From NCBI RefSeq assembly GCF_021028975.2, contig NC_059428.1:149482001-149546000 (forward strand): a stretch of 64,000 nucleotides of DNA. The letters are read 5' to 3'. The notes under the pieces are model-generated. The model did not search any database. It had not been told where the DNA came from and saw only the letters and a list, made by a program, of their open reading frames with translations. Both the position numbers and the translations under genes were made by a program. Source of the stretch: Sphaerodactylus townsendi. Its lineage: Eukaryota. Positions 30,565 to 38,672 of the stretch are shown here, one piece after another. How positions within the stretch are numbered: the stretch's first letter is position 1; the number at the start of each line of letters is the position of its first letter.

Positions 30565-30911
30565 CTGCGCACAGGTGCAAAGCAGCGCGACCTGCGGCTT
30601 CCCCAGTCTAAGTCAAGAAGCCGCCATCTTGCCTGAGGGGTGCTGCGCACTCCGAAGCTCCGCCTACCGTGGCTTCATGCCCTTCTTTCAGAGACTTCCC
30701 AGAGCCCTCTCCTCTGCGCCTGTGATTGGCTCAATACTGCCCAACGGGGCCCAGGATTGGTTCAGAAACCACGGCGCACGGCATCCGGCGATTGGGTACT
30801 TGGCATGAAGGGGAGGGCGGGCAATTGCTGCTCATCCTCCCCGCCAGGCGGAATTCTCCGCCCCTTGTAGCGCCTCCTCCGAGGCGGACCTGGCAGAAAA
30901 CTACATAGTCA
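30565..30911 (-). promoter_or_regulatory. COG7: COG7 promoter and probable non-coding 5' exon
   Basis: Donor-like CAG|GTGAG on - at 30565/30564; acceptor 6 nt upstream of the ATG (30011-30012); YY1-type AAGATGGCGGC at 30620-30630; three CCAAT boxes (ATTGG at 30725, 30756, 30791) spaced 31-35 bp; GC boxes. Confidence 0.65.
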
Positions 30912-30969
30912 CGCGCGCCACCGGCGAGCCTGCGCACCAGTGGTCTCGGCAGGCAGGGTCGGTCTGAGG

Positions 30970-31201
30970 CAGGGGGTCTGCAACCTGCGGCTGTCCAGAT
31001 GTTCTTGGACTACAAATCCCATCAGCCCCTGCCAGCCCCATGCTATATAGAAAACCAGGGGCTGATGGGATTTGTAGTCCAAGAACATCTGGACAATCTT
31101 TATTTTAAATGTCAAAAATTATTTGCAGCTCCAAGTGTTTTCTTTTCCCATGGACAACAGGTCCAAATGGCTCTTTGAGTGTTAAAGGTTCCCTACCCCT
31201 G
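30970..31201. mobile_element. hAT MITE (CAGGGGTCTGCAACC family)
   Basis: CAGGGG..AACC start, GGTTCCCTACCCCTG end; internal palindrome; no matching TSD. Confidence 0.7.
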
Positions 31202-31204
31202 CAC

Positions 31205-31365
31205 TAGACAGTGTGAAACAGACTTTTCTCTGTGATACACCTCTGAAGATGCCAGCCACAGATGCAGGCGAAACGTTAGGAACAAGATCCACCAGACCAC
31301 GGCCACACAGCCTGGAAATCCCACCACAACCAGTTGAATCCGGCCGTGAAAGCCTTCCACAATAT
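31205..31365 (+). mobile_element. Penelope-like pLTR fragment with intact-looking hammerhead motif (31240-31280)
   Basis: CCT-CTGAAGA-TGCCAGCCACAGATGCAGGC-GAAAC-GTT-AGG. Confidence 0.7.
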
Positions 31366-31652
31366 ATAGTCAAAGTCTTTCCTCCGTAGAAACGCATTGG
31401 GTAGACCTGGCCTCCTTCTTCCCCTCCAGGCCTATTCCTTTGAGCAATTTAATAAAATTCTAATGTTTTACTGCTGAACTTGAACAGCCTCTAATGGTTA
31501 TAATATGGGTCTAGGAAGTAAAAATAGAAAGGAAAGGCAGCTCTACCAAGCGGCCTAACTTGCAGGGTCGTCGTGCACCGTGGGGGGATCTGAGTGAGGC
31601 CCCTTCACAGCCCGACTCCTACGCTCTTGACCTCCCCCCCCCTTCCTCCCTC

Positions 31653-31743
31653 CAGGGGTCTGCAACCTGCGGCTGTCCAGATGTTCTTGGACTACAATTT
31701 GTAGTCCATGAACATCTGGACAGCCGCAGGTTGCAGACCCCTG
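31653..31743. mobile_element. hAT MITE collapsed to a near-perfect palindrome
   Basis: 45-bp arms, 1 mismatch, 1-nt spacer. Confidence 0.85.
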
Positions 31744-35000: not shown

Positions 35001-37483
35001 GATCAAAAAGAACAATTACACCATCCCACTGGTAAGGCACGGCAGGGGCGGGGGAGAGGGCAGCTGGAGGAGGGGCGCCCTCTTCTGACGTGTGTATCCT
35101 CGCTCCCCTTCCCAGCACATCAACCCTGTCGCTGCTAACTTGATCCGGAGGATGCTGCGGCCAGATCCGGCCACCCGCCCCACCATTGAGGAGCTGTTAA
35201 GCGACGACTTCTTCTCGACGGGTTACACCCCTTCCCGGCTGCCCCCCAGTTGCCTCACAGTTGCGCCCAGGTTCTCTCTGGCCCCCAACGGGCCCGACAC
35301 CAGCGGAAGGAAGCCATTGACCGTGGTTAACAAAGGTGAGAGTAGGGTTGGGGGTGGGGGGGGCAGGTTGAATACGCCTCCTTTGAAAGCCAACAGCAGT
35401 CATTGGCCTGGGCCTCAGGGCTGGGCTTGTGGGGTCTGACAGGAAAAAGGGTGCTTAAGAAGCAGGGTGCGATCTTATTGGCTCCCCTTCTCCCGCAATC
35501 CTTTGCCCAAATTTTCCCACTTGTAAAATGGGCTCTTGAAGAACTGAGCAACTAGATTTCTAGCTGCAAGTCACTGGGACGAAGGGAACCTCTGGGAAGT
35601 TTGGAGCCAGCCCAGCACCCTGGAGGGAGAGGCGATGGATGCTGTTTTCATTCTCCCGCCCCCTTTTGGCCCCCAGAAGAACATCTTGCCCCAAAGCCAC
35701 GGGCGAAACAGTCTTCCCTGCCCTGGCCGCTTCTGATTTCGGCTGCTTTCCCCCGTCTCAGCTCCAGAGTGCCCTACAACAGACAAGCCCCCTGAGAGGG
35801 AAGCCGAGGGTGCCCAGCGGGAGCCCGATGACTCTGTCGAAAGTCTCCTGATGGAGCTGTTTCAACAGCTAAGAGTGTTAAACTCCTGCAGGCCCTCCGA
35901 GAGAGTCCCCGTCAAACAAGGTGAGGGGTGTGTGTGTACGTGGTGGTGGTGATGGGGGGGGGGGGGAGAGAAGTGGATTGTCTTTACTGCTTAATGCTGG
36001 TTCTTTCTCTCTTCCAGAGGAGGCCGAAGACCCTGCCTGTATCCCCATTTTCTGGGTCAGCAAATGGGTCGATTATTCGGATAAGTATGGCCTCGGTAGG
36101 TGTCTGATGGGCTGGGTCCACCACCACCTCGGTTGGCCGGACTACCTGGGCCCAGGAGGGCGGAGGTGGGCCGTTTCCTTGGCTGGCCGGCTGCTCGGCT
36201 TTCACTTGGGCAGCTCTGTGTTTGAAGTGGCCCATTTTAAGCAGTTGCTCTTCTACAAGCCCGTTCCCCCCAGCCCAGGTTCCTCTTGCCTCGGTGTGAT
36301 CCAGAGGGGCCTCCCCTGGTTCCTCCATAGGTCGGCCCCCAGGTACAGCTGTCTTCTTCTTCCGGTCTCAGCTTGGGGGTCAGCAGCAGGTGTGCTCTTT
36401 CCCCTGCAGGCTACCAGCTGTGCGATAACAGCGTGGGGGTCCTCTTTAATGACTCAACTCGCCTCCTCATGTACAACGACGGGGACAGCCTACAGTATAT
36501 CGACCAGAACAGCTCAGAGTCATACTACAACCTGCAGTCCTGCCCGGACTCCCTCACCAAAAAGGTCAGCGTGGACGGGGATCCCACGGGAGCAGGGAGG
36601 TCAGGATCCACCCAGGAACAGGCTTGGCTTCAGCTCTTGGCAGAAACACTCCCGGCCCCGCACCCCCCCCCCCTGAAATCTAGCCTGGTCTCCCCAGGCC
36701 TGAGCACAAAATCCTCCCTTGCTGACCGCGCCACTAGCTCACCCAGGGCCTGGTTGCCTCCACAGATCACTCTGCTGAAATATTTTCGTAACTATATGAG
36801 CGAGCACCTGCTGAAAGCTGGCGGGAACATCACCCCTCGTGAGGGAGACGAGCTGGCCCGCCTCCCTTACCTGCGCACCTGGTTCCGCACACGCAGCGCC
36901 ATCATCTTGCACCTCAGTAACGGCACCGTGCAGATCAACTTCTTCGAGGTAAGCAGGCAACACCCCGATTGTAGTGTGGTTAGGGCTCCCTACGGTCACG
37001 TCCCTGCACTGCCACAGAAGCTCGCCTGCCTCACAGGGCTGTTGTGAGGACAAGAGAACCCCCTCTGTCCCATTGGAGAGAAAAGCAGGGCCCAAATGAA
37101 AGAGATAAAGCAGCCGGGGTTCTGGAGCTATTGTGTGTCAGAGTCCTGGACTTCTTGCACATTCCCCACCCCGTTCCATGGCCCTAAACAAGCTGGGTTT
37201 AATGGACTGGCGAGTAAGTGCCTCTTCTCCGCCTCTTGCCGTGTTGTCAAACCCTTTGACCCTCTTCTGCCCGCAGGACCACACCAAGGTCATCTTGTGT
37301 CCCTTGATGGCGGCCGTCAGCTACATCAACGAGAGGCGGGAGTTCCGCACCTACAAGCTTAGCCTGATCGAGGAATTCGGCTGCAGCAAGGAGCTGGCCA
37401 GCCGGCTGCGCTTTGCTCGCACCATGGTGGAGAAACTGCTAGCCAACAAGGGGGCCTTGCTCAGCGTCCCGGCTTCTTCCTAG
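32033..37483 (+). CDS. PLK1: Polo-like kinase 1, ~590 aa, 10 exons
   Basis: Exons 32033-32395, 33716-33884, 34446-34590, 34938-35031, 35116-35335, 35762-35920, 36018-36095, 36410-36564, 36766-36948, 37277-37483; 1773 nt. [21 protein letters not shown]-loop [11 protein letters not shown]-box RKPLTVVN, polo boxes [13 protein letters not shown] and DHTK are intact. Confidence 0.96.
33191..33446 (-). mobile_element. Squam3-like SINE
   Basis: Same consensus; PLK1 intron 1. Confidence 0.8.
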
Positions 37484-37662
37484 ACGCCAGCCAGGACTGA
37501 GGCCGGACTCCCACCTGCACAGAGGGTTGACAGGTCCACTACCTAAGCCCGAGGCCGCTTTGCAGCTTGGGCAGTCTGCTCCTCTGGGTTACGCAGAACT
37601 GAAGCAGTGTGGAAGGGGGGGGTGTGTGTCTTCTTTGTCCTGCTTGGGGGGGTGTCTGTCTT

Positions 37663-37713
37663 TTTTATGTTGTTCGTTCTGGTAACTTCTTTTTTAAAGT
37701 AATATTGAATAAA
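37663..37713 (+). terminator. PLK1 poly(A) signal with upstream CPE-like element
   Basis: AATAAA 37708-37713; TTTTAT 37663-37668; GT-rich downstream. Confidence 0.6.
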
Positions 37714-38134
37714 GGTCATTTTCATACTGTTTGACTTGAAACCAAAGACATCGTTACTGGGGTGTGTGTGTGTGTCAAGGTTAATGGCTAAAGATGTGAG
37801 GACCCCAAGGAAAGCCACTCCTTACATTGGATTATCCAACTGGGATTTTTTTTTTTTACGCTGCCCATTACCCCAAACAAAATCTGGCGGCTCAACAGTG
37901 AGAAGAATTAGTGGTTAGAGCCAGCTACAGGCTGTATCTGCTCCGAAAAGGATGGGGCCAGAAGGCCCTCCTTGGCTATGGCTATGCTGAATGCCCCAGG
38001 GGGTCCTCTTGTAAGTCAAAGGAAACCCCGGCCAACACTGTTCACGAGAGGACTGCTCTGGAGGGCATTCAGACCTAGCGTTGCCCTCGGTAAGTGGTGA
38101 CTTGGTGGCACTTAACATACAAATGGACAGGAAG

Positions 38135-38275
38135 CGTTTTGCAAAGATGTGGCCTTCAACAATACACTGACAAATGCAGGGTTCTCTACCTGGGTAACAA
38201 AAAAACATACTGGGAGGGAAATACACTATTGAGTAGCAGTGTGCGTGAACAAGATCTGGGAGTACAGGTGGGTTG
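38135..38275 (+). mobile_element. CR1 LINE fragment
   Basis: Degenerate FN..KC.VL.LG..N / EQDLGVQV peptide typical of the CR1 ORF2 region after RT; a similar fragment lies at 1-70. Confidence 0.6.
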
Positions 38276-38279
38276 TGAC

Positions 38280-38672
38280 CACCTACCTTGGCTTCATGTT
38301 CTTTCTTTCAGACTTCCCAGAGCCCTCCCCTCTGCGCCTGTGATTGGCTCAGCACTGCCTAATGTGGTCCACGACTGGTCAGAAACCATAGTGCATAGCA
38401 TCCTGTGATTGGGTACTTGGCATGAAGGGGAGGGGGCAATTGATGCTGGTCCTCCCAGCCAGTTTGAATTCTCCGCCCCTTGTAGTGCCTCCTTCAAGGC
38501 GGACCCATCAGAAGACTACAGTCAAAGTTTTAGCAGCGCAATTGGGTAGACCTGGCCTCCTGTTTTCTCTCCAGGCCTATTCCCTTGACCACTTCAATAA
38601 AACTAATATTTTACCGTTGAATTTGAAAAGCTGCTGGTTGTGATAATATCTGATATAAAAATAGAAGGAAAG
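38280..38672 (+). repeat. Diverged direct duplicate of the COG7 promoter region (copy of 30661-30911 plus 31366-31536)
   Basis: Long shared blocks, e.g. GACTTCCCAGAGCCCTC, CTCTGCGCCTGTGATTGGCTCA, GATTGGGTACTTGGCATGAAGGGGAGGG, GAATTCTCCGCCCCTTGTAG, ATTGGGTAGACCTGGCCTCC, CTCCAGGCCTATTCC. Confidence 0.9.

Follow-up and report, generated by a model that had tools for sequence, protein, structure and literature searches.

PLK1 stands inverted between two diverged direct copies of COG7 upstream DNA in the gecko Sphaerodactylus townsendi

At the human PLP1 locus, DUP-NML-INV/DUP rearrangements carry a proximal segment twice in direct orientation with an inverted distal segment in between, and their junctions show microhomology and chimeric repeats (PMC6902434); DUP-INV-DUP is a related structure (PMC7702065). 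The class is attributed to MMBIR/FoSTeS template switching. Here, we describe a gecko locus with a comparable arrangement around PLK1. The window, meaning the whole 64,000-nt stretch analysed, comes from S. townsendi (GCF_021028975.2, NC_059428.1:149,482,001-149,546,000, forward strand) and contains the following genes.

16082..30004, minus strand: COG7 coding exons (ATG 30004-30002; Pfam COG7 matches)
30565..30640, minus strand: putative non-coding COG7 exon 1 (sequence reading and motif scan; 5' end approximate)
31745..32032, plus strand: PLK1 upstream region and 5' leader, a CpG island (CCAAT 31846, TTTGAA 31890)
32033..37483, plus strand: PLK1, 10 exons with an intact 590-codon frame (AATAAA at 37708)
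39029..45940, minus strand: EARS2 (Pfam tRNA-synt_1c and Anticodon_2; ends approximate)
46178..54723, plus strand: UBFD1 (Pfam ubiquitin, weak, and PH_UBFD1_C; ends from sequence reading)
59936..64000, plus strand: IRE1-family gene, taken as ERN2 from synteny (start approximate; continues past the window)

A tblastn search of the window with Gekko kuhli COG7 returned 17 HSPs spanning residues 1-767, and the putative exon 1 is followed by a GT donor at 30564-30563 and carries GCCATCTT at 30623, which we take to be a YY1-type site. EARS2, with a minus-strand AATAAA at 39029-39034, was named from synteny. The ERN2 candidate matched PDB IRE1 luminal domains (E 2e-9 and 4e-13), and a search with one IRE1 exon gave no match. 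PLK1 is encoded by 1773 nt from the ATG at 32033 to the TAG at 37483, interrupted by nine introns, all GT-AG, and stands head-to-head with COG7. The retention of all nine introns indicates that PLK1 is not a retrocopy and that its move was DNA-based, as a sequence-only reading of this DNA had proposed, and the CCAAT and TTTGAA motifs agree with that reading in suggesting that the gene kept its own CCAAT/CHR-type promoter.

The gene order in the window differs from that of the outgroups compared, namely chicken, Pogona and Podarcis, none of them a gecko. The chicken and Pogona gene tables read COG7-GGA2-EARS2-UBFD1-ERN2-PLK1-DCTN5, which in the orientation of the window is COG7(-) GGA2(-) EARS2(-) UBFD1(+) ERN2(+) PLK1(-) DCTN5(-), and Podarcis has COG7-GGA2-EARS2. 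In S. townsendi, PLK1(+) occupies the place between COG7 and EARS2 where GGA2 sits in all three, so the COG7-PLK1-EARS2 order is derived, and the objection that it might be the ancestral reptile order falls away. The UBFD1-ERN2 adjacency is ancestral in sauropsids, which makes human a poor outgroup here. The earlier proposal that PLK1 had been relocated was right as to the displacement and missed the inversion, PLK1 being reversed relative to chicken and Pogona; this reversal, together with an origin just beyond ERN2, points to a local inverted move. Across 82 segments of the two gaps, no GGA domain or relevant Pfam family was found that would mark a relic of GGA2 or of another coding gene.

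PLK1 is flanked by two direct copies of a duplicated block, consisting of the following parts.

30660..30911, plus strand: left copy of block A, probably the proximal promoter of COG7 (sequence comparison, motif scan)
31366..31536, plus strand: block B, left copy, opening with the second ATAGTCA (sequence comparison)
38220..38278, plus strand: probable COG7 intron 1 remnant fused to the right copy (weak match to 30382-30436)
38279..38520, plus strand: block A', right copy, with 4 CpG; of the ATTGG boxes the middle one is gone, as is a GC box
38521..38672, plus strand: block B', right copy, uninterrupted site (sequence comparison)

Self-BLAST aligned 30660-30905 with 38279-38520 (83.8% over 247 columns, E 2e-67) and 31387-31536 with 38531-38672 (78.1% over 151 columns, E 1e-24), both in direct orientation and 7.6 kb apart, and returned no third copy within the 64-kb window. 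None of 1000 dinucleotide shuffles reached the score of block A (321, null maximum 39) or of block B (160, null maximum 36), and a 14-mer common to both copies occurred twice against 0.01 expected, which bears out the earlier claim of direct copies on either side of PLK1. The left block A contains ATTGG at 30725, 30756 and 30791, GC boxes at 30815 and 30858, and 16 CpG; its earlier designation as the COG7 promoter can be kept in the weaker form that it is promoter-like. Twelve CpG were kept solely in the left copy and one solely in the right (p = 0.003). The K2P distances of block A (0.159 ± 0.029), block B (0.186 ± 0.041) and an inverted PLK1-upstream piece described below (0.189 ± 0.062; 60 bp, with a wide age estimate) were equal within error, which is compatible with a single episode.

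The flanking duplication, previously put at ~0.4 kb, is real, and its unit was probably longer. The stretch 38220-38278 resembled COG7 intron 1 (30382-30436) at a level reached by 3/1000 shuffles for a region picked by eye, post hoc, by 2/300 shuffles in a wider search, and by 138-985 of 1000 shuffles for six control tiles. The right copy thus probably once included COG7 exon 1, and ~220 bp including the inferred exon now appear to be missing; a copy starting in intron 1 yet lacking exon 1 implies that deletions happened there. Rightward of block B, no match rose above shuffles (7/9 comparisons non-significant), nor did any counterpart of 31096-31210 or 31537-31652.

The left copy is broken by 30912-31365 (454 bp), with ATAGTCA on each side. 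The right copy lacks this insert, as expected of the uninterrupted site that it had been called, but at the corresponding position has just AGTCA, along with small deletions. The insert itself, confirmed between its repeats, is composite rather than one element, joining an inverted PLK1-upstream copy, a MITE and a retroelement-like end; these parts and a second MITE next to PLK1 are listed here.

30905..30911, plus strand: ATAGTCA, left 7-bp repeat, whose last 3 bases (TCA) also open the inverted PLK1-upstream copy
30909..30972, minus strand: inverted copy of unique PLK1-upstream DNA 31745-31804 (83%, K2P 0.19)
30973..31095, no strand: MITE copy 1, palindromic, right end truncated (five MITE copies in the window)
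31208..31367, plus strand: interspersed repeat end, at least 6 loci in the window, its terminus abutting the right ATAGTCA
31653..31743, no strand: MITE copy 2, a near-perfect palindrome without the element centre, with non-matching 8-bp flanks

As a whole, 30909-31017 reproduces 31697-31804 in inverted orientation (87% over 109), with a unique 60-bp part that outscored 1000/1000 shuffles, and the left junction of the insert shows 3-bp microhomology. The MITE, presumably hAT-like, has flanks agreeing at 6/8 positions in the copy at 22755-22844, and a third copy, at 46 kb, is, like copy 2, without matching flanks; MITE copy 2 is likely a chimeric junction, judging from its structure. Rfam miRNA-family matches all fell below the gathering score and reflect MITE hairpins. 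The repeat end at 31208..31367, perhaps Penelope-like, matched no Rfam hammerhead family and had fold z values of 0.3-0.7, not above shuffles. That the insert stops at a repeat terminus and is flanked by a 7-bp duplication would also suit an independent retro-insertion event.

We consider that replication template switching left an inverted PLK1 copy with the COG7 5' region on either side, in the manner of DUP-NML-INV/DUP, and give this reading a probability of about 0.5. A replication fork would have jumped beyond ERN2 to the PLK1 locus, copied PLK1 in reverse and come back upstream of its starting point, creating the second direct COG7-upstream copy; the short inverted insert would be an additional switch within the same episode, and the palindromic MITE one of the switch points. 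The left copy would have continued to serve as the COG7 promoter, with the right one decaying and losing exon 1; later, both PLK1 at its original place and the local GGA2 would have been lost or moved. The inverted PLK1-upstream piece, the microhomology and the centre-less MITE copy 2 are compatible with template switching, at junctions that are old and whose ancestral sequences are missing. In 38673-39030, right of B', seven comparisons with the PLK1 gene and its flanks turned up no remains of another PLK1 unit (best 6/100 shuffles), which counts for template switching. A clean deletion of such a unit would leave the same null result.

Several observations weigh against this reading or oblige it to add events. 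The left arm of MITE copy 1 equals MITE copy 2 at 43/43 positions (chance 0.0006 at 16% divergence), and the MITE arms are 96-100% identical against 83% for the adjoining unique DNA, so template switching needs later homogenisation. It leads one to expect another PLK1, or the relic of one, past ERN2, and since S. townsendi showed one PLK1 gene (two entries) among the best 120 of 4995 matches, a loss must be added; the loss or move of GGA2 is another added event and counts against it. In Eublepharis, PLK1 is represented by two proteins with 97.4% identity, each assigned to a contig 81,085,323 bp long, so the PLK1 move could predate these copies, which also counts against it. The PLK1 rate in S. 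townsendi was ~2.4-3.6x that of Gekko and was raised in both sphaerodactylid proteins, which could be an outcome of a duplicate phase; the contrast between PLK1 and COG7 gave Fisher p = 0.03 and 0.21 and was significant with one outgroup only. The PLK1 proteins of S. townsendi and Euleptes did not form a supported group in either tree, and shared 3 derived sites versus 5 shared with Eublepharis. A bolder version, in which a MITE-guided switch duplicated PLK1 in a sphaerodactylid ancestor and the inverted copy evolved fast, including its kinase domain, and replaced the original, seems to us unlikely; if true, PLK1 would be a recurrently duplicated, fast-evolving gecko gene, with every junction of the founding event preserved at the S. 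townsendi locus.

The best-surviving alternative, which we hold to be possible but doubtful, is that an earlier gecko ancestor already had PLK1 beside COG7, for instance through two overlapping inversions swapping PLK1 and GGA2, and that a unit reaching from intron 1 of COG7 across PLK1 was later duplicated in tandem, deletions then paring the second unit down to its promoter block. This would suit the probable start of the right copy inside intron 1 without exon 1, would dispense with any loss of GGA2 or of PLK1 from the old site, and accords with the Eublepharis pair, a Euleptes protein named 'PLK1-like' and one Lerista PLK1 entry with two adjacent locus tags. However, it takes more events (two inversions, a duplication, a clean >6 kb deletion and a separate inverted insertion), the space between B' and EARS2 holds no trace of the expected second unit, and the Eublepharis pair groups together with 100/100 support and is therefore lineage-specific or converted.

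Less probable still is a move of PLK1 without duplication by two nested inversions, of which the first, staggered, left the inverted COG7-upstream duplicate and the second restored EARS2-UBFD1-ERN2 together with the block. Two inversions do yield exactly PLK1(+) EARS2(-) UBFD1(+) ERN2(+) from the outgroup order, the single S. townsendi gene among the best 120 of 4995 matches is in keeping with them, and the same two junctions can, according to PMC6902434 and PMC7702065, resolve as an inversion between paired duplications; yet the second inversion must closely reuse both breakpoints, GGA2 has still to be removed, and the raised PLK1 rate is left unexplained. That the block is a dispersed repeat flanking PLK1 by chance and unrelated to the move is highly improbable, given its two copies in 64 kb against at least five for each of the window's true repeats, a right copy around which no terminal repeats, tail or matching flanks were found, its promoter-like content and its probable collinear extension into COG7 intron 1. 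That the second copy or the order of the genes arose as an assembly artefact is just as improbable, as the left and right copies differ at 14-16% of aligned columns, plus indels, and with their one-sided CpG decay far exceed allelic or collapsed duplicates, the window contains no N, and two samples of one organism from one study, one of which may be the source, contain 0.88-0.92 of sampled words of 29800-39700; runs of a further organism, D, with low shares (0.23-0.24), were left out of account. A preprint on the matching species describes an assembly from linked-read, Hi-C and nanopore data.

The PLK1 move disrupts a gene order that chicken shares with agamid and lacertid lizards, and leaves breakpoint scars that can still be read. 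If template switching is the true mechanism, a rearrangement class from human patients became part of a species genome, relocating an essential cell-cycle gene, and gecko phylogeny gains a marker that can be dated. With PLK1 evolving faster in two sphaerodactylids and a second PLK1 present in Eublepharis, turnover of PLK1 copies among geckos becomes something that can be tested. The searched literature, with most subscription papers outside its scope, contained nothing on COG7-PLK1-EARS2 or SCNN1B-COG7 synteny in lizards; its ERN2/PLK1 matches concerned human only, those listed for GGA2 and gene loss in geckos had titles about sex chromosomes and genomes, and by title none of the papers listed dealt with PLK1 duplication in geckos or with this locus.

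Among known systems, the enzymes of transposons and retroelements make target-site duplications of only a few bases. The 454-bp insert with its 7-bp flanking repeat, ending at a repeat terminus, resembles these, whereas the duplication flanking PLK1 spans at least 0.39 kb. As in tandem segmental duplication with differential decay, direct copies flank a gene and one is CpG-depleted and internally deleted, but that process leaves the inversion and displacement of PLK1 unexplained, and no remains of another PLK1 unit were found right of B'. Compared with DUP-NML-INV/DUP, the S. townsendi event goes back, on a rough clock, tens of millions of years and covers kilobases, involves a MITE instead of Alu/LINE, and would have its distal second copy, PLK1 at the old site, beyond the window. 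It resembles that structure in its two direct copies of a proximal segment, in the distal segment lying inverted between them, judged against the chicken and Pogona strands, and possibly in the microhomology, chimeric repeat and templated extra insertion at its junctions. The S. townsendi locus probably adds another example to a rearrangement class already described, and does not point to a new molecular system.

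The genes of the window, in order, are as follows:

Plus strand: amiloride-sensitive channel gene (Pfam ASC; SCNN1B by synteny)
Minus strand: COG7, next after the channel gene
32033-37483, plus strand: PLK1, between COG7 and EARS2
Minus strand: EARS2, after PLK1
Plus strand: UBFD1, after EARS2
Plus strand: IRE1-family gene, taken as ERN2, continuing past the window end

PLK1 comprises 1773 coding bases in ten exons with nine GT-AG introns; exon 5 matches proteins named Sphaerodactylus townsendi PLK1 at 100% identity, and the locus is tiled by that protein. GGA2 was absent from the gap, with no relevant Pfam family among 82 segments. 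In human, GGA2 lies between COG7 and EARS2. Chicken (chr14) and Pogona (scf000382) carry DCTN5(+) PLK1(+) ERN2(-) UBFD1(-) EARS2(+) GGA2(+) COG7(+) SCNN1B(-) (PMC4902969), and PLK1(+) adjoins ERN2(-) in Anolis (PMC4902969, supplementary tables). Table S2 of PMC9856856 has the same chicken order and COG7-GGA2-EARS2 in Podarcis, whose PLK1 and ERN2 are without coordinates in that table; gga2 is included in the gene set from Gekko japonicus exons (PMC9856856). In the orientation of the window, the sauropsid order reads COG7(-) GGA2(-) EARS2(-) UBFD1(+) ERN2(+) PLK1(-) DCTN5(-), relative to which the window PLK1 is displaced by at least 26 kb and inverted. COG7-PLK1-EARS2 is thus derived with respect to chicken and Pogona, in agreement with the relocation proposed by the sequence-only reading, which had also placed human PLK1 between ERN2 and DCTN5 (ERN2-PLK1-DCTN5-PALB2-NDUFAB1-UBFD1-EARS2; PMC6693662). 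The IRE1-family gene directly follows UBFD1 (54724-59935 between them), as in chicken and Pogona, whereas human has NDUFAB1-PALB2-DCTN5-PLK1 between UBFD1 and ERN2. On Podarcis chr14, EARS2-DCTN5 spans ~106 kb versus ~36 kb in Pogona, possibly another local expansion (PMC9856856).

Self-BLAST of the window revealed two direct matches flanking PLK1, one in block A, the likely COG7 proximal promoter (30660-30905 versus 38279-38520, 83.8% over 247 columns), and one in block B (31387-31536 versus 38531-38672, 78.1% over 151 columns), and neither match score was reached by any of 1000 dinucleotide shuffles. The left copy is interrupted at 30912-31365 with ATAGTCA on both sides, while the right copy is unbroken and retains AGTCA. 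The earlier description of the duplication was correct. Block A sits directly upstream of a putative non-coding exon of COG7; it has two GC boxes, three ATTGG boxes and a CpG count of 16, versus 4 in the right copy (aligned CpG left-only 12 times, right-only once, P = 0.003); by sequence, the left copy is probably the working promoter and the right copy is probably decaying. The 59 bases preceding the right copy (38220-38278) align weakly to COG7 intron 1 (3/1000 shuffles, for a region picked by eye; six control tiles gave 138-985/1000), suggesting that the duplicate was formerly longer and then lost ~220 bp including COG7 exon 1.

The 454-bp insert splitting the left copy is composite, and repeats occur elsewhere in the window:

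30909-30972, minus strand: inverted copy of unique PLK1-upstream DNA, 83% identity
After 30972: palindromic MITE, then ~110 unmatched bases, then the end of another repeat abutting the second ATAGTCA
24890-25184, 39507-39799, 44835-45143, 46767-47089, 62968-63279 and others: SINE-like family of ~290 bp, roughly ten copies, 70-93% identity
26227-26448, 27148-27374, 48284-48686: second repeat, often in inverted pairs

The MITE may be hAT-like and the repeat end Penelope-like; neither Rfam nor folding supported a ribozyme in the repeat end. At the left junction of the insert, TCA is common to junction and donor. An AATAAA on the minus strand (31099-31104), in the unmatched part, could mark where DCTN5 or GGA2 once ended. 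The MITE adjoining the PLK1 promoter (31653-31743) is missing its centre, and its flanks do not match each other, a weak sign because those of the 46-kb copy are also unmatched; the flanks of the copy at 22755-22844 agree at 6/8. The arms of the MITEs at 30973-31095 and 31653-31743, 0.6 kb apart, are 96-100% identical and the adjoining duplicated unique DNA 83%, suggesting conversion between palindromic arms. K2P distances were 0.159 ± 0.029 for block A, 0.186 ± 0.041 for block B and 0.189 ± 0.062 for the inverted piece, corresponding to 66-78 million years at a gecko rate quoted in PMC5901865 (0.00243 per million years) or 33-39 at double that rate, a rough age given probable constraint on the left copy and CpG decay in the right one; the MITE arms fit this clock only with later homogenisation.

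Over residues 36-578, the window PLK1 carries 44-47 private changes versus 13-19 in Gekko kuhli (four outgroups, P ≤ 0.0016), a ~2.4-3.6-fold excess greatest in the kinase domain (20 versus 5), and Euleptes PLK1 carries 41-48 versus 17-22; Gekko and Eublepharis did not differ. COG7 showed no significant excess (26:18, 23:23, 20:23), and acceleration specific to PLK1 is only suggested, because the PLK1-COG7 contrast gave P = 0.21 when Pogona was the outgroup and P = 0.03 when lacertids were. Two PLK1 proteins occur in Eublepharis macularius; they share 97.4% identity and group as sisters at 100/100, each is on a contig of 81,085,323 bp, and one is altered in polo box 1. The Euleptes 'PLK1-like' protein has a long branch, differs at polo-box positions that do not otherwise vary, and has three derived residues in common with the window PLK1. 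The trees, for which 16 proteins out of 51 and 19 out of 160 were picked as squamate PLK1 plus a few outgroups, do not settle gecko relationships. Bufo gargarizans has PLK1 and PLK1-like entries of the same length on equally long contigs.

One resolution of the human DUP-NML-INV/DUP class places a distal segment, in reversed orientation, between two directly repeated copies of a proximal one; the class is ascribed to template switching, and its junctions show microhomology or chimeric repeats (PMC6902434; related inversions are described in PMC7702065). With a probability of about 0.5, the window fits this class, the COG7 5' region being the proximal and PLK1 the distal segment: template switching would have left an inverted PLK1 between two direct copies of the COG7 5' region, after which the original PLK1 would have been lost and GGA2 lost or moved. 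The later PLK1 loss is needed because only one S. townsendi PLK1 gene occurs among the best 120 of 4995 matches, where relics or members in other clusters would escape. An earlier move of PLK1 followed by tandem duplication and then deletion is rather unlikely: it agrees with the PLK1 pairs in other lizards but takes more steps, and seven comparisons found no relic to the right of the right-hand copy of block B. Nested inversions are doubtful. A dispersed repeat (self-BLAST found no third copy within the 64-kb window) and misassembly (two samples from one organism and one study contain 0.88-0.92 of the words sampled, which does not independently prove the junctions) are both very improbable. 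No paper on this locus was found in the literature searched, which lay largely outside subscription journals. Collectively, the PLK1 relocation is real, derived and inverted, with a readable duplication scar, and, although it may have arisen by any of several routes, it is a new case of a known rearrangement class.
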